This document shows positions 4,688-62,900 of a stretch of 64,000 bases of DNA, piece after piece; the stretch's first letter is position 1; each line of letters begins with the position of its first letter. The position numbers were made by a program, and so were the translations under genes. Origin of the DNA: Cyanobacteriota bacterium (lineage in GTDB: Bacteria > Cyanobacteriota > Cyanobacteriia > Thermostichales > Thermostichaceae); the NCBI GenBank assembly GCA_033764955.1, contig JANRIL010000020.1:64001-128000 (forward strand), given 5' to 3'. The notes below the pieces were generated by a model. That model worked only from the letters and a program-made list of their open reading frames with translations. It did no database searches and was not told the origin of the DNA.

Positions 4688-5491
4688 TTACATAGGAGGC
4701 AGTTGGTCAGGATCGATCCCTTGAGATCGCAAGAATGCCTCCAGACGCTCTGCCCGTTGGTGTTCCTGTTCCGCCCGTTGGTGTTCCTGTTCCGCCCGTT
4801 GGTGTTCCTGTTCTGCCCGTTGGTGTTCCTGTTCCGCCCGTTGGTGTTCCTGTTCCGCCCGTTGTCGTTCTGCCTCTTCCGGCAAAGGAATCAATTCTCC
4901 TGCTGCCGTAAACCAGCGCAGTTGCTCCTCATGGATCCCTAACTGTAACCCCAATTCCTCGCTGGCTAGCCTTCCACCCTCTAGTGGAGCAATAGCCTCA
5001 TACTCACCATTCACCAGGCGAAATCCTGCAAACTCCATCGTCTCAGGATGAAACCAGTAATATTCAGGTAATCGCCACACCTCCTGATAAAGTCTTTTTT
5101 TCGCCCCTTTATCTACCCTGGCAGTGGAATCGGAGAGTAATTCAATCACCACATTGGGATATTTACCCCCCTCTTCCCAAACTGTCCAACTGCGGCGCTC
5201 CTGTTTTGTGGTCGCCAACACAACAAACACATCGGGCCCTAAAAAATCTCTCTGTTTAAGCTGCTGGGTATTGTAATAAACAGTCAAGTTGCCAGAAATA
5301 TAAAAATCTTGTCGTTCCCACCACCAATAATTGAGCAGACGAATTAATAGATCAATCTGGCTGCGGTGAAAGTCGGTTTCCAAGTTCGGCTCATCACTAT
5401 AAAGATTACAGGGGGGCCACTCGACAGGGATCCCAGGATCTAGAATGGAGGGACTCTTATCTAAGTAAACCATGACGAAGTTCTCCATCAA
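4688..5491 (-). CDS. Uma2 family (PD-(D/E)XK) endonuclease with C-terminal coiled-coil repeat
   Basis: GPDVFVV, SWTVWEEGGKYPNVVIELLSDST, EYYWFHP; (QRAEQEH)n tail. Confidence 0.85.
   Translation of the reverse strand: MMENFVMVYLDKSPSILDPGIPVEWPPCNLYSDEPNLETDFHRSQIDLLIRLLNYWWWERQDFYISGNLTVYYNTQQLKQRDFLGPDVFVVLATTKQERRSWTVWEEGGKYPNVVIELLSDSTARVDKGAKKRLYQEVWRLPEYYWFHPETMEFAGFRLVNGEYEAIAPLEGGRLASEELGLQLGIHEEQLRWFTAAGELIPLPEEAERQRAEQEHQRAEQEHQRAEQEHQRAEQEHQRAEQEHQRAERLEAFLRSQGIDPDQLPPM
4752..4864. repeat. 21-bp tandem repeat (5 units plus a partial) coding QRAEQEH heptads
   Basis: Unit GCCCGTTGGTGTTCCTGTTCC read directly, nearly identical copies. Confidence 0.95.
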
Positions 5492-10954: not shown

Positions 10955-12556
10955 ATGTCCGCGAATCATGCGAACCATTGGAAAACCCTGCTGGCTGGCA
11001 CCCTGGGTGCGGCGGCAGTTTTGACCCCAGGCATCGCTCAGGCACAACAAGTTGCCCAAGCCTCTGGCCCTGTGACAGCGATTTCTGAACTGTCTGATGT
11101 TCAGCCCACAGACTGGGCGTTTCAAGCTTTACAATCTCTGGTCGAGCGTTACGGTTGTATTGCTGGTTATCCTGACCGCACCTACCGTGGCAACCGAGCC
11201 ATGACTCGTTTTGAGTTTGCGGCAGGGATGAACGCTTGCTTAGACCGCATCAACGAATTGATTGCGGCTGGTTTGGCTGACAAAGTATCGAAAGAAGATT
11301 TGGCTACTCTGCAGCGCTTGCAAGAGGAATTTGCGGCTGAGTTGGCAGCACTAAAGGGTCGGGTTGACCAACTAGAAGCTGATGTTGCCGATCTGCAAAG
11401 CAAAGTCTTTAACCCCGTCACCAAGCTAAGAGCTGCCGTGATCACCGCTTTGGTGGGTAGTGCCTTGTCGGATGATCGCGTCATTGATGGTGAGACTGTG
11501 GTGGCTAGCGATCAAGCCAACATGACCTTGCCCTACCGCGTCCGGATGAACTTTGATGCTTCCTTCACCGGAAGTGATCGTTTAAGAATTCGTTTGCAGG
11601 CTCGTAACGCTAACACCCAGTTCTTCGATGGCGACCCTGGCTTGGGCTTTGGCGGTGGCGGTGGTGGAACTTTCACCCTAGCCAAGTTGTTTTATCAGTT
11701 CAACACCTTTAACGATGCCGTCACTGTCTTAGCAGGGATTGAGGGTACCGGTAACTTTGACCTCTACAACTACGGTACTCCTTTTGATTCTCTCTCTGAC
11801 TTTGCTGATGCCCCTAATAGCACCGGCGACTTTGGAGATGCTTTGCTTGGTTTCAAAATTCAACCGGGTGAGCAATTCTCCCTCTCCTACTTCTATGGAA
11901 CCGGTGGAAATGCTTCCAGCCTCGGAGATGGATTTGGGGATGCCGGTGTCACCGGTGGTGACACAGCTCACGGTGTGGAACTGGGCTTCACCCCTACCGA
12001 CACGATTGAGCTTTATCTGCAATTCCAAACCACCTATGTGCAGGATGCTACTACTGCGGGTGATTACCTAGCCAGTGGAACGACTTTGTTCCGTGGTCCT
12101 CTCTTCGTGGGTGAAGAGCCTGTTTCGGGAACCAGTGCCCGCACCAATGCCTTCTCCTTTGCGGCTAACTGGGAAATCACTCCTCGTGTTATCCTGTCTG
12201 GCTGGTTTACCACGGGTAACATTGACTATTCCCTCCCCAACGTGATCCCTGCCGGTACTGTGGATCCTGGAGATGAAGACTTCAATGGCTTCTTGATTGG
12301 TTTGGCTTTCCCTGACTTGTTTATCGAGGGTGCTCAGGGTGGAGTTGTCTTTGGTCAACCCATTGTGACCACCAGCAATGATGGAGTTTGGGATACTCGC
12401 CCCTTCATCTTTGACATCTACTACAGCTTCCCAGTCAATGACTACATCACCTTGACTCCGGCTGCTTATTTTGTCAGCAACCCCAACGGTGCCCTGCCTG
12501 GTGACAATGACCCCACCATTGGTGTTGGCGCTCTGAGAGCAACCTTCAGCTTCTAA
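10955..12556 (+). CDS. Cyanobacterial outer-membrane porin (SLH domain plus OprB-type barrel)
   Basis: Signal peptide; SDVQPTDWAFQALQSLVERYGCIAGYPD; C-terminal ...LRATFSF. Confidence 0.92.
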   Translation: MSANHANHWKTLLAGTLGAAAVLTPGIAQAQQVAQASGPVTAISELSDVQPTDWAFQALQSLVERYGCIAGYPDRTYRGNRAMTRFEFAAGMNACLDRINELIAAGLADKVSKEDLATLQRLQEEFAAELAALKGRVDQLEADVADLQSKVFNPVTKLRAAVITALVGSALSDDRVIDGETVVASDQANMTLPYRVRMNFDASFTGSDRLRIRLQARNANTQFFDGDPGLGFGGGGGGTFTLAKLFYQFNTFNDAVTVLAGIEGTGNFDLYNYGTPFDSLSDFADAPNSTGDFGDALLGFKIQPGEQFSLSYFYGTGGNASSLGDGFGDAGVTGGDTAHGVELGFTPTDTIELYLQFQTTYVQDATTAGDYLASGTTLFRGPLFVGEEPVSGTSARTNAFSFAANWEITPRVILSGWFTTGNIDYSLPNVIPAGTVDPGDEDFNGFLIGLAFPDLFIEGAQGGVVFGQPIVTTSNDGVWDTRPFIFDIYYSFPVNDYITLTPAAYFVSNPNGALPGDNDPTIGVGALRATFSF

Positions 12557-12585
12557 GATCTCTACTTAGGTTCTTAAATTTAGCT

Positions 12586-12616
12586 AAAGAGCTTTCCTGC
12601 GGGGAAGCTCTTTTTT
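12586..12616 (+). terminator. Rho-independent terminator after the porin gene
   Basis: AAAGAGCTTTCC-TGCG-GGGAAGCTC-TTTTTT. Confidence 0.8.
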
Positions 12617-12751
12617 GATGTATGTGGTTTGGGGATCCCATCCGCTCTTGATCACGGAAGTTCAGCCTGCCAACAGAAAGGCTTAATCAGCCTGGGATTT
12701 TGTCAATGGATCCCGCCTGCAAATGAGGCAGATCTTGGGGGTGTAGCCTGA

Positions 12752-12973
12752 TTGCCGTGGGTGATTGGGAACGTTAGACCTCCCAATCTGACTGCTGCTC
12801 AATTAGCGAGTTTGTATCGTATTAGCTATCAACTGACTTTTACGATGCTTCAACCTATTCATTTAATTTGTGTTGATGCGCGAACTCAAAATGTGTACGT
12901 CCTCGCTGGATATGACGAAGAGCTTGAGTTTCAAATTCTGCTCAATGGGGAGCCATCTGATGAGCCAGACTAA
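12752..12973 (+). CDS. DUF6888-like small protein (start uncertain)
   Basis: TAAQL...PIHLICVDARTQNVYVLAG...EFQILLNGE; overlaps the next gene, as in DUF6888/DUF6887 pairs. Confidence 0.6.
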   Translation: MPWVIGNVRPPNLTAAQLASLYRISYQLTFTMLQPIHLICVDARTQNVYVLAGYDEELEFQILLNGEPSDEPD

Positions 12974-13300
12974 TTATTCTGCAATGACTGATGCTGAATT
13001 AAAGCAATATTTTCTTAAACATCGTGGAGATCAAGCTGCTTTTCAACCATATAGTCATTCCAAATAAGAATGCGACCACCTAAATCTTGATATCCAAGCT
13101 TTGAGAGATTTTGGGTTTCTCAAACTAAATTGGAACAACTATATCTAGACAGAATTAATCAACGTCCACACAGGATTATTGCTAGTCCTGATGATCCTGA
13201 TTTTGATGAAAAAGTGCAAGCAGCAATTCGGCAAAAACTAAAAGCAGCAAGAAGCCGCCGCAATCAGCAGGCTAATAATTCAAATGCAGCGGACGGTTGA
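12960..13300 (+). pseudogene. DUF6887-like protein interrupted by a MITE
   Basis: MSQTNYSAMTDAELKQYFLKHRGDQAAFQP|YLDRINQRPHRIIASPDDPDFDEK... The frame is restored exactly when 13052-13141 and one TA are removed. Confidence 0.8.
13052..13141. mobile_element. 90-bp MITE of IS630/Tc1-mariner (ISY100-like) type
   Basis: TA target duplication (13050-51 and 13142-43). Terminal IRs TAGTCATTCCAAATAAG / CTAAATTGGAACAACTA (13/17 match). No transposase ORF. Confidence 0.8.
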
Positions 13301-13357
13301 GAACTGCTGGTGCTGAGTTCGAGGTCATCTACCGCCGCTGATTTGAGGCGGTTATCA
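13270..13357 (+). other. attC-like site (degenerate)
   Basis: GGCTAAT...CAAATgCAGCGGaCGGT...ACCGCCGCTGATTTG...GTTAT; arms pair with two extrahelical bases. Confidence 0.6.
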
Positions 13358-13366
13358 AAAAATGGG

Positions 13367-14875
13367 TTAGAGATCATCTAGGTGGATCCCGTCTGGCCAC
13401 GGGCGATCCCGATAGGGATACCAATAGTTCTTGCGCTCCATGATGTAGTCGATATGCACATGCTTGGGTTCGCGGAAAGCATCTAACCCTTCTTCCCCCA
13501 GTTCTCGCCCATTGCCACTCCAGCGCATTCCTCCAAACGGGGCGGCATCGTTGTCCGTTAAGGGATCATTCACCCAAAAAGTTCCCGCTTTGATGTTCTC
13601 CATCGCTTTCAGAGCATATTCCAAGCTGCGGGTATAGACGGAAGCCCCCAATCCAAACCGAGAATCGTTAGCCATCATAATCGCCTGATCCGCATCTTCG
13701 GCTTCGATGAGAGCAATCACCGGCCCAAAAATTTCTTCGGTGGTGGGCAGGCTACCGTGGCGGACGTTGGTTAACACCGTTGGCTCAAAAAAATGTCCGC
13801 ACCAATCCGGGATCCGTTGACCGCCCCGCAGCAGGGTGGCTCCCTCCTGGCAGGCTTGCCACACCTGTTTTTCCACTTTCTCCACAGCGTCGGCGGAAAT
13901 GAGTGGGCCAATGTCGGTTTCGGGGAGGAGGGGATCCCCCACCTTGAGGGAATGCACATGCTCCAGGAGTCGCTCACAAAACTCCTGAGCAATCGATTTG
14001 ACCAGATAGATGCGCTTAGAAGAGGTACAGACCTGTCCGGCGTTGAGAAGCCGTGCCCAGGCTACCCCCCGCACCGCTACCTCCAGATCCGCATCTTCAA
14101 AGACGATAAATGGATCGACTCCCCCCAGTTCCAGGTTGACCTTTTTCAGGTGTTGTCCGGCTACGGAGGCGATATGGCGACCCACCGCCGTCGATCCGGT
14201 AAAAGCAATCAGATCCACATCGGGGTGTTGAATCAGCGCCTCTCCGGTGGAGCCATCTCCGGTAATCACATTGACGACTCCCGGCGGCAAGATATCGTAG
14301 GCTTTCGCCATCAGGAGATTGGAAAGGGGATTTTGGTGAGGAGGCTTGCAAACTAGCGTATTGCCAGCGGCGAGTGCGGGGGCAACCTTCCAGGCCATCA
14401 GCAGGAGGGGAAAGTTGAAGGGCACGATCGCCGCCACTACCCCATATGGCTCTTTGATGGTGAAATTCAGTTGATGGGGAGCCACGGGAGGAATCGAGTT
14501 GCCCCGGCTGGCGCGTCCCACTTCGGCATAGTATTCAAAGCAAGCCGCCACCCACTCCACACAGTCCAGCGACTCGATCAAGGGCTTACCGGATTCACGG
14601 GTCAAGAGGAGGGCTAACTCATGCTCCATCCCCCGAATGCGGGATCCCACCTCCCGTAACAAGGCGGCTTTCTCTAGCCCCGGCATTTTCCACCAATCCC
14701 GTTGAGCTTGGCGAGCGGCTCGCACCGCCCCATCCACATCTTCAGCAGAACAGTCTGGTACGGTACTGAGGGTTTCTAGGGTAGCGGGATTGTGGATAGA
14801 ACGGCTTTGCTGGCTCTGTGAGGGGATCCACTGCCCATTGATATAAATCAGCTCCACACTCCCTATCCCCCGCAT
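13367..14875 (-). CDS. NAD(P)-dependent aldehyde dehydrogenase
   Basis: PFNFP, FTGST, LELGG, NAGQVC (catalytic Cys), EEIFGP. Confidence 0.92.
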   Translation of the reverse strand: MRGIGSVELIYINGQWIPSQSQQSRSIHNPATLETLSTVPDCSAEDVDGAVRAARQAQRDWWKMPGLEKAALLREVGSRIRGMEHELALLLTRESGKPLIESLDCVEWVAACFEYYAEVGRASRGNSIPPVAPHQLNFTIKEPYGVVAAIVPFNFPLLLMAWKVAPALAAGNTLVCKPPHQNPLSNLLMAKAYDILPPGVVNVITGDGSTGEALIQHPDVDLIAFTGSTAVGRHIASVAGQHLKKVNLELGGVDPFIVFEDADLEVAVRGVAWARLLNAGQVCTSSKRIYLVKSIAQEFCERLLEHVHSLKVGDPLLPETDIGPLISADAVEKVEKQVWQACQEGATLLRGGQRIPDWCGHFFEPTVLTNVRHGSLPTTEEIFGPVIALIEAEDADQAIMMANDSRFGLGASVYTRSLEYALKAMENIKAGTFWVNDPLTDNDAAPFGGMRWSGNGRELGEEGLDAFREPKHVHIDYIMERKNYWYPYRDRPWPDGIHLDDL

Positions 14876-21584: not shown

Positions 21585-22413
21585 ATGCCTGATTACGCCA
21601 CCCTGCCGTTTTCCGCCGCATGGGTTTGGCTGTCGGACAATCTCTCTGAGCGAGCGCCAGGTGACTGAGCGAGGACTGACGGTGGAGAGCCTCAAGTTGG
21701 GGTGGGGGATGGTGTTTGTTACCAAGACCCAGGCTCCGGCAAGGAGACGCTGATCCGCTTGGAGGCTGAGCGGGGATTTGAAGGGATCCCTGGGGCTAGT
21801 AGGTCGCAGCAACGCTCGGAGATGATGCGCCAGATTTTGCGGCGATTGGATCTGGTGAATGCCGCTTGGGTGCGGCAGGAGATGGCAGCGATTGATCAGG
21901 GAATTAAGGAGCGGCGTTCACCTCCAAGCTGGGTGCAAAGTGCGATGGGACAGGCAGAGACCCTGGATCAGGTGGAGACCGAAGATCCGCAATAAGGTAG
22001 ATCGAGAGCGGGCTTACGTGGTGGATGCCGATGGCACGGTAGTCCTGACTAAAGACGGTGAGGCCTTGTCGGTGGACTTCACCTACGAGGAGATGCAATT
22101 GATTCGGGGCAAGGTGTTTACCCACAATCATCCCAAAGGGGGATCCTTTTCTCGTGAAGATATCAACTTTTTGCTAACCGTCTACCCATCAGAGATGAGA
22201 GCAGTGAGTCGAGATTACCGATACTCAATGAAACTGCCCGATAATCCTATCGACGCATTCTTCGAGATCAGAAAGATATTTGACCGGGTTAAAGAGTCTG
22301 TGCGACTGGAACTGGTAGAGCGAGTCAGGTCTGGCGAATCAACCCTTATTGCAGCCGAGCAGCAGTTTATGCACTTGTTAGCTGGCTTAGTTACGGGTGG
22401 TGATTGTAGTTGA
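21585..22413 (+). pseudogene. Mu-like phage head morphogenesis protein gpF (MuF) with C-terminal HNHP/JAB-like domain; internally deleted and frameshifted
   Basis: MPDYATLPF joined out of frame to PPHGFGCR-TISLSERQVTERGLTVE (MuF PPxGxxCRC-like motif). Later frames give ERAYVVDADG...FTHNHPKGGSFSREDI...EMRAV. Confidence 0.65.
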
Positions 22414-22497
22414 AAGGTTACTGGTTGGGATTCGATGCTCTAGCCAACCTTCAAGACAGCGGCTATTCAGAAAATAAGGCGCTATACTGACAGATAT

Positions 22498-24168
22498 TTG
22501 ACCATCGAAGATAAAACTATGTTGAGAATTCAAGATTTAAACCTTGGTTTTAATGATGCTGAAAACTATAAAAGAAGTGAGAATAAGAGCCTTTTAAATA
22601 AAGTGTTTTTTAGGACAGACGAGCTTGATAGGCTTTGCGAGAGAAGCACGTTTTTCCTGATTGGTGAGAAAGGAACTGGAAAAACTGCTTGTGCTGTCTA
22701 CTTATCGAATAACGATTACAAAGATACACTATCATCAATTAATTATATTAGAGAGACGGACTATCAAAAGTTTGTTCAGATGAAGAAGAGAGAGCATCTT
22801 GCTCTTTCTGATTATGTAGATATTTGGAAAGTAATTCTATATCTACTGATCAGCAAAAACGTTAGTGAAAATGAGCCAAATAGTTTACTATTACCTAAAG
22901 CTATTAAGTTTCGCAATATTAATTCGGCTGTAGATGAGTATTATGCAAGAGCATTTTCTCCAGAAATCATAAATGCAATTAAGTTTGTAGAGAAATCCAA
23001 AATAGCTGCTGAACTTGTATCAAAATATGCCAAAGCTAGCGGAGAAGAAAGCGAAGAAATAGCGTTTTCTGAAAGCCTTTTTCAAATCAATCTCATGTAT
23101 GTCCAGAAGAAATTTGAAGAAGCATTCTCATCTCTAAAACTACAGAAGAATCATCTGCTGTTCATAGATGGAATTGATATTAGACCATCACGAATTGATT
23201 ATGAAGACTATCTTGAATGCGTTAAAGGCTTAGCAAACGCAGTATGGGCAATCAATAACGATGTATTTCCCAAAATAAAAGATTCAAAAGGACGGCTTAA
23301 AGTTGTGCTTCTAGTAAGACCTGATATTTTTGATTCCATAGGTTTGCAAAATCGGAATAATAAGATTAGAGATAACTCTGTTCTATTAAATTGGAATACA
23401 ACTTATAAAAATTACAGAAACTCCAAGTTGTTTGAAATGGCTGGAAAGTTGGTGGGGACTCAGCAAAATCCGCAAGTTCAGTATGATAAGGCTTGGGATT
23501 ACTATTTTCCCTACACAATCGAAAATAAAGCTAATAACAAGCAAAGCGAAAATGATCCATCATTTATTGGTTTCTTGAGATATTCTCTTTATCGCCCTAG
23601 AGATATTGTCACAATGCTCTCTATTCTTAAAGAAAATTTTATTGAGCAGAGACAAGATCCTAATAGAGTATTTTCTGAAGCGGATTTCTTTAACGCTGAG
23701 TTTGTCAGAAAGTATTCGGAATATCTGTTAGGTGAAATAAAGGATCAGTTGTCTTTTTACTACACGGAAAATGATTATCAACTTTTCCTTAAATTCTTCG
23801 AGTACTTGAAAGGAAAGAGCCAGTTTTCGTATGATGATTATCTCAGTGCTTATCAAGCGTTTGTAGGATATCTAGATTCAAATTCAATTAGAAGACCAAA
23901 ATTTTCTGAAGCGCCTGACGTATTTCTTCAATTTCTCTATGAGTTGAACGTCATTTTTTATATTGAGAAAGTATCGGGCGGAAACTTCATAAGACTATGC
24001 CTTCGAGAGCGAAACCCAACTAACATTTCTCCAAAAGTTAAAACACATCAAACATATCAAATTCACTACGGACTAATCGAAGAGCTTAACGTAGGTAAGA
24101 AATACACTACGCTTGAAGTAGCGTTTCGGCAGGCTTTCAATAGACCTCAGAAAATTGAGAATCAATAA
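22498..24168 (+). CDS. P-loop ATPase (Sll1717/FunZ-like), cassette 1; ATG alternative at 22519
   Basis: LGFNDAENY, Walker A GEKGTGKT, Walker B LLFIDGID, RPDIF, YRPRD; strongly AT-rich and lacks GGGATCCC. Confidence 0.8.
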   Translation: MTIEDKTMLRIQDLNLGFNDAENYKRSENKSLLNKVFFRTDELDRLCERSTFFLIGEKGTGKTACAVYLSNNDYKDTLSSINYIRETDYQKFVQMKKREHLALSDYVDIWKVILYLLISKNVSENEPNSLLLPKAIKFRNINSAVDEYYARAFSPEIINAIKFVEKSKIAAELVSKYAKASGEESEEIAFSESLFQINLMYVQKKFEEAFSSLKLQKNHLLFIDGIDIRPSRIDYEDYLECVKGLANAVWAINNDVFPKIKDSKGRLKVVLLVRPDIFDSIGLQNRNNKIRDNSVLLNWNTTYKNYRNSKLFEMAGKLVGTQQNPQVQYDKAWDYYFPYTIENKANNKQSENDPSFIGFLRYSLYRPRDIVTMLSILKENFIEQRQDPNRVFSEADFFNAEFVRKYSEYLLGEIKDQLSFYYTENDYQLFLKFFEYLKGKSQFSYDDYLSAYQAFVGYLDSNSIRRPKFSEAPDVFLQFLYELNVIFYIEKVSGGNFIRLCLRERNPTNISPKVKTHQTYQIHYGLIEELNVGKKYTTLEVAFRQAFNRPQKIENQ

Positions 24169-24202
24169 TTGGAGTGAAGTTGAAATCTACTGAGTTTTCG
24201 CC

Positions 24203-24289
24203 AGCTAACAACCCGGTTGGAGCGGACGTGCATAGTTCTTTTGTCTATCGTTCTAGTTTTCTGGTTGCCGCTCAACCGGAACGTTGAGC
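24203..24289 (+). other. attC site 1
   Basis: AGCTAAC..CCGGTTgGAGCGG...CCGCTCAACCGG..GTTGAGC. Confidence 0.85.
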
Positions 24290-24342
24290 CTAGGACGGTC
24301 GTGCTGAGACACTGAAGTGGATCATTCAACGGGAGGTATTTT

Positions 24343-24711
24343 ATGTCCGTATTTCGCAAAGATCAGAACGAGGTACACAGCCTTCACGGCAACCACATCG
24401 TCGGTGTTGCCACGCCTACCAGCGGCGCAAAGCAAGTTGAGATGTGGCACGGTCGCATGGATGCAAACTCCGCTACCCCACCGCACAGCCACGACACCGA
24501 AGAAGTTGTCCTGTTCCTGAAAGGCAGTGGTCGAGCCACGGTTGCCGACGCGGAAGTTCGCTACCACGCAGGGGACACACTGATCCTGCCGGCTGGCCAT
24601 GTGCACCAAATCTTCGCCGACACCGACAGTGAGTTCGTTTCAGCCAGTCCAAGCGGTGGCACGGTCAAACTTCCAGATGGTGTGGTTCTGGATCTTCCAT
24701 GGCGCAAGTAG
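24343..24711 (+). CDS. Cupin domain protein, cassette 2
   Basis: PPHSHDTEEV...G and GDTLILPAGHVH cupin motifs; GGAGG RBS; GC-rich codon usage. Confidence 0.88.
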   Translation: MSVFRKDQNEVHSLHGNHIVGVATPTSGAKQVEMWHGRMDANSATPPHSHDTEEVVLFLKGSGRATVADAEVRYHAGDTLILPAGHVHQIFADTDSEFVSASPSGGTVKLPDGVVLDLPWRK

Positions 24712-24716
24712 CTTCG

Positions 24717-24785
24717 GCCCAACAACAGGTTCCAGTGCGACGTCCTCGCCTTCGGCGAGGACGCGCCTGAACCTGGGCGTTATAC
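24717..24785 (+). other. attC site 2 (canonical, 69 bp)
   Basis: GCCCAAC-AA-CAGGTTcCAGtGCGaCGTCCTCGCC-TTC-GGCGAGGACGCGCCTGAACCTG-GGC-GTTATAC; three extrahelical bases. Confidence 0.92.
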
Positions 24786-24845
24786 GGCACAATAAATGAT
24801 GGTTTATGCAGATGAAGAATAGTCTATGTCGGTAAAAGAAGAAGT

Positions 24846-25253
24846 ATGTCGATAGAGGAAGAAGCCAAAGCGGTAGTGCGTCACTACGTCGAAGCATTTA
24901 ACCAAGGTGATTTAGATACACTGAAGGCACTGCTCACTGAGGATGCTGAGATTCAGGGTGTAATGGGCAAAGGTCTTATTGAGAAGATTGAGCCTATTTG
25001 GCGACAACTCATCGAGGGCTACGGTATGCAACTTAAGATCGAGGAGTTAATCGCGGAAGGCAATATCGTGGCAGCAAGGTATGTTGAGACAGGAGTTTTC
25101 AGATCACCAGCGTTTGGGAATCAGCCAACGGGAAAATCTTACGAGCTTGTTGCAATGGAATGGTTTGAAATAGAAGGGGGTAAAGTTAAACGCCGTTGGG
25201 GCGCTAGGGATGCTGCATCGCAGGCACGGCAACTAGGCATTCCTCTGCTTTAG
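24846..25253 (+). CDS. SnoaL-like ester cyclase (NTF2-like), cassette 3
   Basis: KAVVRHYVEAFNQGD, IEELIAEG..VAAR, PTGKS, GGKVKRRW. Confidence 0.85.
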   Translation: MSIEEEAKAVVRHYVEAFNQGDLDTLKALLTEDAEIQGVMGKGLIEKIEPIWRQLIEGYGMQLKIEELIAEGNIVAARYVETGVFRSPAFGNQPTGKSYELVAMEWFEIEGGKVKRRWGARDAASQARQLGIPLL

Positions 25254-25267
25254 CCTGAATACATGCC

Positions 25268-25356
25268 GTATAACATAATTCGCTTGGAGTGGACGGAACA
25301 GAGGTTATCTGTGGGTGTTCAAGGTTATCTACCGCCGCAAGACTTCACCGTTGGGC
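25268..25356 (+). other. attC site 3 (degenerate)
   Basis: GTATAAC...CTTGGAGTGGACGG...AAGGTTATCTACCGCCGCAAG...GTTGGGC. Confidence 0.7.
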
Positions 25357-41221: not shown

Positions 41222-41548
41222 TTAGGTGGCTGAAGCCCCCGGCAGTAGCCGTAATCGAATCCTACTCTTCAGAGTGCGAGGTTCAGTTGCAATGCAATCA
41301 CTGTCCTTTGTCATCATCACAGCATTTTCATCTTGTGCTGCTTCAAAAACTTCAACATCTTGAGTATCTCGAAGGGATAACTCTCGCAGCGCAGATACTT
41401 CTAACCCAAAGGTTGATGATAGCCAGTTTGCTAGCGTTGGAGGTAACTGGGTATCAACCCAAATCTTCATCTCTCGAATGCAGGGACAACCACCACACTG
41501 ACCAGGGGTTTGGGTAGTGCGGCTAAGCAAATTGGCTGTTGCGTTCAT
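41222..41548 (-). pseudogene. Collapsed DUF433/DUF5615 (PIN) toxin-antitoxin remnant
   Basis: DUF433 start (SRTTQTPGQCGGCPCIR) fused to a PIN start (MKIWVDTQLPP...TKDSD), then truncated. Confidence 0.7.
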
Positions 41549-41741
41549 GATGAGGTGTTAAGCTATTCTGTCTACTTCCATCTTATTGAGTAATCATGAT
41601 GCACCTGCCAGCCAACAGGTTACAGCAGCGGAGAGTGCTGATCTCGATGTTGGGCTGCTTGATATCCTGTTGGGGACGGTGCTTGGATGTTATCTGTGAG
41701 CCTCTTGTGCTGTGATAGATTAAGCGTCAAACAAGTAGTTT

Positions 41742-42065
41742 ATGCAAGCGATGCCTGTACAAACGAAAGCCCAAGTGCTAGCTCTGCTCCAGGAGTATCA
41801 CCAAGAGTTACACCGCTTGGGAGTGAGACGTTGCGGCGTTTTTGGTTCGTTTGCCCGTAACACTACAATTCACCCTCAAAGTGATGTTGATATTTTGGTT
41901 GCTTTTGATCCAGACCAGAAAACGTTTGATAACTTTATACACTTATCCTTTTTTCTAGAAGATCTTTTTGGTAGAGCGGTTGGCCTCATTACTATAGAAT
42001 CATTGAGTCCTTATATTGGCCCGCGTATTTTAGCTGAGGTCGAGTATGCCTCCCTAGGCTCGTGA
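41742..42065 (+). CDS. Minimal nucleotidyltransferase (MNT) antitoxin
   Basis: GVFGSFAR...SDVDILV...LEDLFGR...LSPYI. Confidence 0.88.
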   Translation: MQAMPVQTKAQVLALLQEYHQELHRLGVRRCGVFGSFARNTTIHPQSDVDILVAFDPDQKTFDNFIHLSFFLEDLFGRAVGLITIESLSPYIGPRILAEVEYASLGS

Positions 42066-42390
42066 ATATTTACAGCATATTCTTGATGAAACGACTTACA
42101 TCATGACGAGTTCTACGAGTTTAGACAAGACGAAATTTATGCAAGATGAAACGCTGAAGCGTGCTTAGGCTCGTAGTATTGAAGTAATCGGTGAAGCGGT
42201 CAAACAGTTGCCAGATGAGTTGCGTCAAAAATATGATGCTATTGAATGGCGGACTATGGCTGGGATGCGTGATCGATGGATTCATCACTACTTTGGTGTT
42301 GACTATGACATTGTTTGGGATGTTGTAGTCAATAAAATCCTTGCACTGGATGCCGAAATTAGATTAATGCTTAAGCAGGAGTATCCGTAG
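42046..42390 (+). pseudogene. HEPN (DUF86/HepT-like) toxin with two in-frame TAG stops
   Basis: MPP*AREYLQHILD...KRA*ARSIEVIGEAVK...GMRDRWIHHYFGVD; stops at 42055 and 42166. Confidence 0.85.
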
Positions 42391-42422
42391 GTCGGGCATT
42401 GAAAACAATGGTATGTGCAGCA

Positions 42423-42509
42423 TCCCAACAATCCCAAGGCATCGGAACAAAGTTATGCGATCGGTGAGTTGCCAAGGTTATCGGTGTCCGGTGATTGGGA
42501 ACGTTATCT
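42423..42509 (+). other. attC-like site closing the MNT-HEPN cassette
   Basis: TCCCAAC..TCCCAA...AAGGTTATC...TTGGGA-AC-GTTATCT. GCATCCCAAC complements the cassette start GTTGGGCTGC at 41649 (9/10). Confidence 0.65.
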
Positions 42510-42573
42510 GCCACGGCTGATTTGAGTGGTTACGAAGCTTTTGCGGATCCAGATAAGACAGGATTTAATAGCC

Positions 42574-54375: not shown

Positions 54376-55161
54376 ATGGCTATTGTGTTAGCGTTCACCA
54401 ACAATAAGGGCGGAACGGGCAAATCAACCCTCTGCGCCAACTGTGCCCATATCACCGCTCAACAGGGACAACGGGTTTTGTTGGTGGATCTTACCTCTCA
54501 GCGCACCGCCAGCACCCTGCTCCTAGGGGAGATTGAAGATTTAACCGAAGCCGAAACCGTGCTGGCTCTTTTGCAGGATCCCCCACTTCGCCCCATTCTG
54601 GAGTTACTCTATGAAAGCAGCAAAGGACTGGATGTGTTGCCCTCGCACGTAGGCATGGCTCAGGCGGTTTCACGGCTCGCGGTCATGACCCAAGACTCCT
54701 CCACTCTGCTCACGGATCAATTGCGTTCCATTCAAGAAGAATATGACTATATTTTTATCGATAGCCCCGGTGACCTGAACGAATTGACCCGCAATGCCTT
54801 GACCGCTGCTCAGCGGGTGATCATCCCCTCCCGTCTCAATCGCACCGACTTTTCTTGTACCGAGGTGACATTGCGATTTTTAGCCTCGACGGTCATGCCG
54901 CCACCAACAGCACGGGTGGTTCTCAATATGTTGGATGATCGCTATTTGCCAGGGGGAATCTGGGCGACAGCTCACACCGGACAACTTTATCAGCAGGCAC
55001 GCCATCTGTTTGCGGATGTTTTGTCGCCCATCACGATCCCGGATAGCGGAGATCTGCGTACTGCCTTTGATCGGGGGTTGACCGTGCTGGAGTACAAACC
55101 GGATACTGTGGTGGCGCAACGTTTGCAGGAATTTGTTCATCAAGAGGTGCTTTGTGACTGA
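54376..55161 (+). CDS. ParA family ATPase (orphan)
   Basis: Deviant Walker A NKGGTGKST, VLLVD, YIFIDSP. Confidence 0.9.
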   Translation: MAIVLAFTNNKGGTGKSTLCANCAHITAQQGQRVLLVDLTSQRTASTLLLGEIEDLTEAETVLALLQDPPLRPILELLYESSKGLDVLPSHVGMAQAVSRLAVMTQDSSTLLTDQLRSIQEEYDYIFIDSPGDLNELTRNALTAAQRVIIPSRLNRTDFSCTEVTLRFLASTVMPPPTARVVLNMLDDRYLPGGIWATAHTGQLYQQARHLFADVLSPITIPDSGDLRTAFDRGLTVLEYKPDTVVAQRLQEFVHQEVLCD

Positions 55162-55684
55162 TCATCGGAGTCTTTTTTCTGCCTCAGGATCTCCCCCTGC
55201 CCGTTCCTCCCGCAAGCGTAAACCTGTGGCCTCCCAGTCAGATTCAACCGATGCTTCCCCCGCTCCAGCCGACCTCCCACCCCCTCAGCAGTCGGATCCG
55301 CCTGGGTTGGAGGAGTCGGGATCCCTGGAGATCGCCCAACTGCAAGGGGAACTGCAAGCGCTGCAAGTCCGACATCAGCAGGATCAACAGCACATCGAGA
55401 CCCTTCAGCACCAACTCAGCAGCAGTGAACAGGCTCGTGCAGATTTACAAAACCAGCTCCAACAAACGGTGGCTCACCGCGATGAACTGGAAAAAGCTCT
55501 CAAAACAATGCAGGCGCTCGCAGAAACCCGCGCCCAAGAGCTACAACGCCTGCACACTCAACCCACTGAACAACCCCCACCAACCGCTCACCAGCCCAAA
55601 CGACAGCCCAAACCCCTTGGCATTCATCGTCCGATTGGCCCGCAGCCAGGGGGAGGCGATATGCCTGCCTTTCTGCTGGACTAA
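55154..55684 (+). CDS. Hypothetical Q-rich coiled-coil protein, overlapping the end of ParA
   Basis: GTG overlaps the ParA stop; basic disordered N-terminus, coiled coil, Pro-rich linker, C-terminal DMPAFLLD. Confidence 0.75.
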   Translation: MTDHRSLFSASGSPPARSSRKRKPVASQSDSTDASPAPADLPPPQQSDPPGLEESGSLEIAQLQGELQALQVRHQQDQQHIETLQHQLSSSEQARADLQNQLQQTVAHRDELEKALKTMQALAETRAQELQRLHTQPTEQPPPTAHQPKRQPKPLGIHRPIGPQPGGGDMPAFLLD

Positions 55685-55898
55685 ATCCGCTCCCAATCTC
55701 CTGAAAAATGCTGGGGAGAAGGGTCGCCAATTTACACCTCCTCCTCTGTGGAAACCTGCTTTTCCTGATGGAGTGGTGGCACCCCCATAAAAATCCTGTA
55801 GCAAACCCTACCCAGAGGGGAAGGATCAACGCTAAAGTTGCGGTGAGGATCCCTAAAGGTTATCCCTTCGCGGGGATAAATGAGGCCAAACAGCCAGA

Positions 55899-56336
55899 GT
55901 GTCTCTCGTCGTCACGCCCATGTATACTCCGTCTCCCCAACCTGTTCTCAACCATGTTCTGATTGTGAAAGACCGTAGCGGCCCCAGAGCCTATTGGTTG
56001 ACGGCTGAACTTTATTCATTGGGGCGAGACGCCAGCAATAGCATTCGGATTGACTCCCAATATGCCTCACGGCATCACGCTATTTTGGTCAAGATGGAGT
56101 CTCCCCTCACTCCTGACGGCTTTGTTTATCACATTATTGATGGAGATGTGGAAGGCAACCCCAGCACTAACGGTCTCTATGTGAGTGGTCAACAAACCGA
56201 GTTTCGAGATTTAGAAGACGGGGATGAGATCCAGTTTGGTTCGGATGCGGTGGCGACCTACTCCCTACAAGCCAGGGATCTCAACTCGATTTTAGAAACC
56301 TTTGAGCATACCCAGATTGTGGTTCCCGGCTCTTAG
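55899..56336 (+). CDS. FHA domain protein
   Basis: LGR, ASRHHA, STNG. Confidence 0.85.
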   Translation: MSLVVTPMYTPSPQPVLNHVLIVKDRSGPRAYWLTAELYSLGRDASNSIRIDSQYASRHHAILVKMESPLTPDGFVYHIIDGDVEGNPSTNGLYVSGQQTEFRDLEDGDEIQFGSDAVATYSLQARDLNSILETFEHTQIVVPGS

Positions 56337-56418
56337 GCTATCCATCCGCATGATACGATCATGACCTTATGCCACGATGTGTCTTCCCTGATGAGGTCTG
56401 CTGAATCGATAGCTACTC

Positions 56419-57777
56419 ATGCAAGCCATTACCAAAATCTTGATTGCCAACCGTGGGGAGATTGCCCTGCGCGTGATTCGCACCTGCCAGGAACTTGGGA
56501 TCCCGACGGTGGCCGTCTATTCTAAGGCGGATCAAAGTGCCCTACATGTGCAGTTGGCGGATGAGGCGGTTTGTGTGGGGGAAGCTCCCAGCGCCCGCAG
56601 TTACTTAAACATTCCCAATATCATTTCGGCAGCCCTCACCCGTGGAGCCAATGCCATTCATCCAGGCTATGGTTTTTTGGCCGAAAATGCCAAATTTGCG
56701 GAGATGTGTGCGGATCACAACCTGATTTTTATCGGTCCTGCTCCCGATGCCATGCGAAAAATGGCGGATAAGGCAACAGCCAGAGAAACGGTGCAGTCGG
56801 TGGGAGTGCCCACAGTGCCAGGAACCAAAGGCTTAATTGAAACCGACGAGGACGCCACCAAAGCGGCGGAACGGATTGGCTATCCGGTGATTATCAAAGC
56901 CACCGCCGGTGGTGGTGGGCGGGGAATGCGCGTGGTTCACAACAGCAACGACTTGGTGAAGATGATCCGTGCCGCCCGTGGCGAGGCCGATGCCTCCTTT
57001 GGCAACAGTGGCATTTACCTGGAAAAATTTATTGAGAAACCCCGCCATATCGAGTTCCAAATTTTGGGCGATACCTTCGGGAATGTTGTGCATCTCTACG
57101 AGCGGGATTGTTCGATTCAACGTCGTCATCAAAAGCTGTTAGAGGAAGCCCCTAGTCCGGCTCTCAATCCGGCTCTCCGCACCAAGATGGGATCCGCTGC
57201 TGTCAAAGCCGCCAAAGCAATCAACTATACGGGGGCAGGAACCATCGAGTTTCTCCTCGACAAGCACGGGCAGTTTTATTTTATCGAGATGAATACCCGC
57301 ATTCAGGTGGAACATCCGGTGACGGAGATGGTGACCGGACTCGATCTGATCGCCGAACAGATTCGCATCGCCCAAGGGCAGCGACTTTCTTTTAGCCAAA
57401 AGGATGTGCAACTGCAAGGTCATGCCATCGAATGCCGCATCAACGCCGAAGACCCTAAGCATCAATTTCGACCTCATCCAGGACGGATTAGCGCCTATCT
57501 CCCTCCGGGGGGGCCTGGAGTGCGGATTGACTCGCATGTTTACACCGATTATTCCATTCCTCCCTACTACGATTCGCTGATCGGCAAGCTAATCGTCTGG
57601 GGGCCAAATCGAGCCGCCGCCATTCGTCGAATGCAACGGGCTTTAGGAGAATGTGCCATCACCGGCATCCCCACCACGATCCCTTTTCATCAAAAAATTC
57701 TGCGACACGAAGCCTTTTTGAAAGGGGATGTTTATACCGACTTTATTCAACAGCACATGCTCAAAGAGGAGGACTGA
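56419..57777 (+). CDS. accC: Acetyl-CoA carboxylase biotin carboxylase
   Basis: ANRGEIA, HPGYGFLAE, GGGGRGM, RDCSIQRRHQK, EMNTRIQVEH. Confidence 0.96.
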   Translation: MQAITKILIANRGEIALRVIRTCQELGIPTVAVYSKADQSALHVQLADEAVCVGEAPSARSYLNIPNIISAALTRGANAIHPGYGFLAENAKFAEMCADHNLIFIGPAPDAMRKMADKATARETVQSVGVPTVPGTKGLIETDEDATKAAERIGYPVIIKATAGGGGRGMRVVHNSNDLVKMIRAARGEADASFGNSGIYLEKFIEKPRHIEFQILGDTFGNVVHLYERDCSIQRRHQKLLEEAPSPALNPALRTKMGSAAVKAAKAINYTGAGTIEFLLDKHGQFYFIEMNTRIQVEHPVTEMVTGLDLIAEQIRIAQGQRLSFSQKDVQLQGHAIECRINAEDPKHQFRPHPGRISAYLPPGGPGVRIDSHVYTDYSIPPYYDSLIGKLIVWGPNRAAAIRRMQRALGECAITGIPTTIPFHQKILRHEAFLKGDVYTDFIQQHMLKEED

Positions 57778-62479: not shown

Positions 62480-62744
62480 GATAATGAAGCTCCTTAACGA
62501 AGGGTGAAGAAACAACAAAAAGTCCTCAACATTAAGACGCCTGCGCTCCTTGCTAGCAACGAATTGAGTGCCAAACCTGAGCGCTCGAATCCCCCAGCCA
62601 GCTAAACATTTGAGCCAGGGGAACGGGCTTGAAGAGAACTCAACAACTGAAGAACCTGAGAAGCAGTGTGCTGCTGTTTAAGCCTGCTTTCTGAAACCAC
62701 CTTTGGACTTGCCAAAGACAGAGGAAATGCTGCTTTTCAGTCTT

Positions 62745-62900
62745 CTCTCAATGCCGACGGGGTTAGCTGACGGGCTGGAGCTAAGAGATGCTCCTCTGGT
62801 TGAGACCAACGGCGACAACCACGATACGCCCCTTGGATTGGATCCCCCGCTTCAGAAAACTTAGGAATGAATTTCCCTTAATTTTCTGAACTAGGCTGAC
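62745..62900 (-). ncRNA. c-di-AMP riboswitch (ydaO/yuaA leader)
   Basis: Minus strand GCGGGGGATCCAATCCAAGGGGCGTATC ... CCCGTCAGCTAACCCCGTCGGC matches the conserved ydaO cores; lies upstream of the usp gene. Confidence 0.88.

Follow-up and report, generated by a model that had tools for sequence, protein, structure and literature searches.

How a DUF6888/DUF6887 gene pair came to stand between an OprB/SLH porin gene and an aldehyde dehydrogenase (ALDH) gene, where Pfam places it as the original prediction had said, is the question raised by this locus. The locus lies in a stretch of 64,000 nucleotides (the window; contig C42, positions 64001-128000) of the draft genome G000, which comprises 3.8 Mb in 48 contigs (completeness 89%, contamination 0.23%) and is the sole member of its genus among the genomes searched. 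The commonest octamer of this genome, GGGATCCC (4915 copies), is a HIP variant reported in thermophilic Synechococcus OS types, according to the available sections of Elhai 2015 (PMC4390886). We read it as an integron cassette of SALIN type that stands alone and has decayed, and propose, with somewhat better than even confidence, that it is part of a block copied from a cassette array that would once have stood behind fmt, with a right joint made by integrase. Everything said below of its history is read from one draft genome; the remains described on contig C39 stand in the sequence itself. The features concerned are collected in Table 1.

Table 1. Features of the cassette locus, of the other attC loci of the window and of the presumed donor-side contig (positions in the window unless a contig is named; a slash marks the crossover).
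Feature	Position	Strand	Details
OprB/SLH porin gene, left flank	10955..12556	+	Pfam PF04966, PF00395
Porin terminator-like hairpin, then T run	12586..12613	+	
Copy of fmt tail, 160 bp	12632..12791	+	90% identical to C39:14441-14283; holds the final 38 codons with their stop, a half attC in a 27-bp spacer, 18 bp past crossover
GGGATCCC palindrome, left breakpoint of fmt copy	12632..12639		Contains GAT, fitting the GWT attG consensus
attC right-arm remnant, without left arm	12753..12779	+	Holds the 17-mer; crossover G/TT 12773/12774
DUF6888 gene, codon 3 onward	12791..12973	+	PF21828; start codon, codon 2 and leader absent
DUF6887 gene, split by MITE	12960..13300	+	PF21826; overlaps DUF6888 end by 14 bases; stop within attC
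MITE, 94 bp	13050..13143		Terminal inverted repeats, TA at both ends; 30 full-length genome copies
attC site	13270..13357	+	R'' 13270-13276; crossover G/TT 13351/13352; one additional spacer base before R'
ALDH gene, right flank, convergent	13367..14875	-	Pfam PF00171
Small array of three attC (556-aa gene, cupin, SnoaL-like cassettes)	24203..25356	+	Sites 24203, 24717, 25268
Full attC (60.3 bits) with extra right arm directly after	42423..42533	+	Extra right arm 42503-42533
Contig C39 (presumed donor side) after half site			Short leader, copy of 152-bp MITE, putative first attC bases by chlI stop

The right border of the insert is a genuine attC of the genome's own family, as originally called. 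On the bottom strand the site at 13270-13357 folds into a hairpin (-18.2 kcal/mol, z -5.6, reached by 0/200 shuffles) with paired L boxes and extrahelical bases, and it obtains 73.9 bits, the top score in the window, with a covariance model for which 20 sites from elsewhere in the genome were used, none of them in the window, all model pairs being retained except one in an R box. The R boxes read GGCTAAT ... GTTATCA, with AAT replacing the AAC triplet as in other sites of its subfamily, and the additional spacer base may lower the recombination activity of the site. The motif that was said to link this site to the attC at 25268-25356 is present in both, as AGGTYATCTACCGCCGC at 13322-13338 and 25322-25338, and has 3 copies genome-wide. 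The ALDH stop lies 9 bases from the end of the attC (13357) and 15 bases from its G/TT crossover. An Rfam search gave no match at the cassette locus; elsewhere in the window there are a c-di-AMP riboswitch on the minus strand (62738-62877, RF00379, 54.9 bits) and a tandem 21-bp repeat of about five copies (4749-4853). Just outside both insert ends stands a 9-bp inverted pair consisting of a T run plus GAT (12611-12619 and 13354-13362), which is of low complexity and may be due to chance.

The original prediction had an attC on the left side as well, pointing to a 17-mer at 12760-12776 that recurs at 42490-42506. The identity itself is confirmed (17/17, not extendable, only two copies in the 3.8-Mb genome). 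Alone it is weak (an order-3 Markov model predicts 0.23 direct repeats of this length in a window), and it takes its meaning from ending exactly at an attC crossover GTT. With a 30-nt right-arm matrix the left site scores 15.3 bits, and scores above 14 occur at 87 genomic vs 13 control positions. What stands there is half a site: it has no left arm, its folding is unremarkable (z +0.39), and the covariance model, run with filters off, does not match it at E<=5. A complete R''-L''-L'-R' hairpin is absent from 12753-12779, and the DNA upstream is coding sequence of fmt. This fmt copy, whose counterpart on contig C39 is identified as methionyl-tRNA formyltransferase by Pfam PF00551/PF02911, begins exactly at GGGATCCC, 18 bases past the porin terminator, and its homology stops at 12791, exactly where that to DUF6888 sets in. 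Over the 38 codons 6 of the differences from C39 are silent and 4 are coding, a premature stop among them, a sample too small for any dating; since the two copies differ by 10%, a collapsed or repeated assembly is unlikely. The R'' of the right attC agrees with the left R' at just 5/7 positions, and therefore the left crossover probably does not come from the DUF6888/DUF6887 cassette itself. A left junction of the cassette's own, G/TTRRRY complementary to R'', is absent, the left R' belonging to the fmt copy. An intact mobile cassette between two attC sites, one of many single insertions, would account for a 17-mer that closes with a crossover GTT shortly before the pair, and single sites are common in this genome; it is nevertheless a most improbable reading, as both the paralogy with fmt (160 bp, 90%, E 3e-56), in which the half site lies, and the damage to both genes contradict it.

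This damage begins at the 5' end of the pair. The DUF6888 domain is well matched (PF21828, E 2e-17), and homologues begin M-P-T after a conserved leader, Met1 being invariant in 50/50 aligned proteins; 22/29 homologous loci open with ATG-CC and 2 more with GTG, and the window copy has neither. No promoter-like match was found in 12500-13450 either; the cassette has lost its promoter and its start codon. The element that splits DUF6887 has the marks of a MITE: it is short and non-coding, with inverted termini, a target duplication and many copies; no autonomous parent was identified, and it may be kin to TA-targeting elements of the IS630 type. The pair at this locus is most likely dead. A second, distant DUF6888 copy (C21:9840-9986) has an internal stop and no attC nearby.

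Elsewhere the family is better preserved. Matches to DUF6888/DUF6887 occur in 53/401 genomes of the class, the best protein match (92% identical) coming from another order, and an attC match lies directly downstream of the pair in 6/29 homologous loci, in one of them (L212) within an array, with stubs in others. By this arrangement, DUF6888/DUF6887 classes as a cyanobacterial integron cassette. Its intact homologues form what looks like a two-gene cassette with its own leader and possibly, going by the layout (overlapping genes, conserved leader), a toxin-antitoxin-like pair. For one intact pair of homologues, the predicted complex reached 0.56 vs 0.00 for the best control, the runs sharing at least 98% of their contacts and the partner pLDDT being at least 74; this score is rated weak, as the range up to 0.60 holds 18/157 solved complexes and both of the 2/215 mismatches that passed. 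The DUF6888 model (pLDDT 94) resembled no known toxin fold (best Z 5.5; Foldseek best E 0.34), the DUF6887 model (pLDDT 72) gave no fold match, an Atlas search returned DUF6888 clusters only, and a literature search found no paper naming DUF6888 or DUF6887.

The genome as a whole shows that the right attC belongs to a large family. A covariance model was built, and the genome scanned with it, from an alignment of 20 of 44 full-length candidate sites, all outside the window. The attC structure expected of the repeat holds in 89% of the alignment cells, 11/19 pairs have changed on both sides, and the covariation was reached in 0/500 shuffles, with slid controls far lower. The scan yielded 76 attC matches (the 20 training sites match by construction) on 27 contigs and in 47 loci, 33 of them single, 27 of which lie >4 kb from a contig end, and 14 clusters. 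Two clusters are linked to an integrase and hold 7 and 4 model matches. A profile HMM gave 94 hits in 65 loci scoring above the best reversed-genome score. Besides fragments, the genome encodes two full-length IntI above the TIGR02249 cut-off, both without stops and with the R, K, H-x-x-R, H and Y motifs; contig C42 has no TIGR02249 match. The attC family is common to 25/30 genomes of the order and is scattered also in a closed genome (G019, 37 matches).

The dispersal of single cassettes that had been predicted is thus borne out by the 33 single loci; the agent, however, is the integron integrase and not the repeat, which does not disperse itself. The further claim that cassettes went to scattered places rather than into one array does not hold, as two integrase-linked arrays exist and the other sites of the window belong to small decayed arrays. 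A perfect left junction was seen at 4/30 single sites vs 0.9% in controls, counting only sites with an upstream ORF and GTT (30 single and 32 clustered, of 75 examined), and C1:44990 is a clean example of a single site that has one. GAT stands at the crossover of 5/43 terminal vs 0/26 internal attC, a difference that is not significant (p 0.086). This pattern is in line with the insertion at attG sites of consensus GWT that has been described for SALINs (10.1101/2022.09.11.507474), and the dispersal is of the already known SALIN/CALIN kind. Many cassettes open with GTTATC, and many loci of the genome are decayed arrays. A 20-bp motif recurs at C4:15558, C7:103492, C11:33787, C11:52279, C23:45267, C27:18906, C27:112545 and C38:64781; in most of these eight loci it directly follows an attC crossover and is itself followed by unrelated chromosome, on C7 it forms two inverted copies about 1.05 kb apart, and it is absent from the DUF6888/DUF6887 locus.

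The other attC loci of the window illustrate both decay and unusual joints. In window covariance scores, the site at 42423 (60.3 bits) is followed by 24203 (56.2), 25268 (30.9) and 24717 (22.4). The three-site array has a perfect left GTT junction with no attC arm ahead of it, and lies in a phage-like module (22378-25356) with paralogues on C11 and C34; the use of this module (22378-25350) as an internal empty-site test failed, as the paralogous modules differ. The region 41222-42533 is a decayed array that holds a minus-strand DUF433/DUF5615 remnant, a weak attC remnant near 41610, a nucleotidyltransferase gene with a broken partner, and an attC. The extra right arm behind the site at 42423 runs from the internal GTTATC motif to a GTT of its own, and a second case occurs at C9:2615-2643, which suggests that the integrase may also cross over at GTT inside the attC loop region. 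On C36, a cassette block (at 55303; 55119-56435), whose genes resemble XisH/XisI, is enclosed in a 103-bp direct repeat of 98% identity, the right copy of which begins at an attC G/AT. The block looks like another instance in which duplicated chromosomal DNA meets an attC at G/AT.

Coming back to the locus itself, the fmt tail, the half site and the cassette follow one another in one order on one strand, as at the head of an array. With the attC closing the series on the same strand, the simplest reading is therefore that the block was copied from an array behind fmt, and both of its outer junctions read GWT, the attG consensus. We propose the following series of events. A cassette array would formerly have stood directly downstream of fmt on C39, where the half site, leader, MITE and attC stub would be what is left of it. 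A block running from the end of fmt over the half attC and one or more cassettes to the attC at 13270 would have been copied into the space that separates the terminator of the porin gene from the stop of ALDH. At the right joint, one of the genome's integron integrases most likely recombined the folded attC with a chromosomal GTT. The left joint at GGGATCCC would be due either to the integrase acting at G/AT, by an attC x attG excision that carried chromosome with it, or to microhomology between two palindromes. A deletion would have brought codon 3 of DUF6888 up against base 18 past the half site, and the MITE would have inserted in DUF6887. Excision at nearby off-site genomic positions has been seen in E. 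coli, in the available part of that study (10.1101/2022.09.11.507474), and the replicative resolution described in the accessible sections of PMC12614218 would spare the donor fmt. Against the copied block stand the facts that neither an empty site nor a donor state was seen, that C39 is without the DUF pair, of which no trace was found on that contig, and that no attC follows fmt in relatives.

A history of two events explains some of these facts in its own way. The integrase would have placed the whole cassette as an ordinary SALIN, and a 160-bp patch of fmt, from the strain's own or a related strain's gene, would later have replaced the 5' end illegitimately, with the palindrome as the left joint and a few shared bases as the right one. 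The exact meeting of fmt and DUF6888 homology at 12791 and the lack of the pair on C39 would both be expected, the 6:4 ratio of silent to coding changes would agree with an allele donated by another strain (though the sample is too small to date anything), and HIP sites have been tied to site-specific and illegitimate recombination in the available text of PMC4390886. It does require the coincidence that a patch carrying half an attC and a crossover landed, correctly oriented, at the head of a cassette, and we regard it as a possible but rather doubtful course of events.

The search for relatives bears on the copied block and on a third history. A DNA search of 30 relatives gave matches only to attC sites, to the DUF pair and to the ends of the porin gene. 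The 8 porin loci examined have other neighbours, and no relative keeps the porin beside ALDH. With the window's ALDH as query, no match came from 22 family genomes at E<=1e-120; its metagenome relatives (80 loci, 63-76% identity), none of them close, include one rich in GGGATCCC with other neighbours, and the gene is possibly an old horizontal gain. Behind fmt, no attC was found in the 22 family genomes (in one of which the fmt region stops at the contig end), so that fmt as a conserved cassette platform was rejected (0/22 relatives), and a pattern from the fmt end had 0 metagenome matches. For the leader that follows the half site, a pattern search hit 2 unrelated taxa, and 300 genomes of the class gave 3 weak matches, all judged chance. 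An apparent DUF433 start after the C39 site was rejected, being part of a second MITE family of about 152 bp that lies at C39:14109-14260 and on at least 12 other contigs. Gene order around the porin, fmt and ALDH is not conserved in relatives, as would be expected if no integrase event had happened here and the locus were the last remnant of a bigger array or island, the bases past the attC crossover belonging to a lost next cassette. The many decayed arrays of the genome and the many cassettes that start with GTTATC would agree with such an origin, and rearrangement is a listed route to CALINs in the available part of PMC8618304. Yet there are just 9 bases from the attC to the ALDH stop, with no leader-like sequence, and the attC is well preserved (73.9 bits), which makes this origin improbable.

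If the copied block is accepted, the question turns to its left joint. A whole palindrome at the breakpoint is unlikely under a joint made purely by integrase (we estimate well under 1%), and microhomology would account for it more easily; yet neither cassette borders nor the ends of duplications show an excess of palindromes. GGGATCCC lies within 60 bp after 11% of terminal attC vs 16% of ORF stops, so that a scattering of cassettes by these palindromes genome-wide is not supported, and palindromes stand at 2/50 ends of two-copy segments, with 0.6 expected (p 0.13). We nonetheless put forward, as a speculation with limited chances, that the integrase captures chromosomal DNA in nature: a terminal attC would recombine with an upstream G/AT, here in the GGGATCCC of fmt, and the resulting circle would carry the tail of the gene and be reinserted, while the donor survives. 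If so, the fmt copy and the 103-bp repeat on C36 would be two footprints of chromosomal capture, dispersed attC sites would be a source of gene-fragment duplication and new cassette content, and the palindrome would be a favoured target. Excision that takes the neighbouring chromosome along was found reported only from E. coli experiments, and a natural footprint in the fmt tail would bear on how new DNA joins the cassette pool. The locus itself changes little, as single cassettes scattered in this way are known already and the present copy is most likely dead. The unusually large set of dispersed attC beside two intact integrases makes the genome well suited, as a natural example, to the study of how cyanobacterial cassettes insert outside the integron.

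The locus can be set beside several known systems. With the HIP1-type palindromes, in the available account of PMC4390886, it shares an octamer that is the most frequent of its genome and stands at the left breakpoint, and differs in that no genome-wide link of the palindrome to cassette borders was found here. Cassettes of the delta-attI type, with truncated or replaced attC (PMC12901181, accessible sections), likewise have partial recombination sites beside them; there it is the downstream attC that is replaced by part of attI, and here an attC right arm lies upstream, joined to chromosome. CALINs (Cury et al. 2016, PMC4889954; PMC8618304; both as far as the available text goes) resemble the window loci at 24203-25356 and about 41610-42533, which are small arrays without integrase. 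The DUF6888/DUF6887 locus may be a piece of a CALIN, and it differs from one in having only one full attC. The closest likeness is to the SALINs. The usual number of these is one (1847/2469 genomes) against 33 single loci here, figures that are not directly comparable, as ours come from a lineage-trained model and a draft genome. The left border also differs, being a duplicated housekeeping-gene tail with a half attC instead of a clean GTT junction, and the cassette is broken. In all else the locus has the make-up of a SALIN: a coding region that carries a single attC, with neither a further full attC nor an integrase within 4 kb (the next full attC is 10.8 kb away, and upstream there is the half site), a GWT junction, and integrases elsewhere in the genome.
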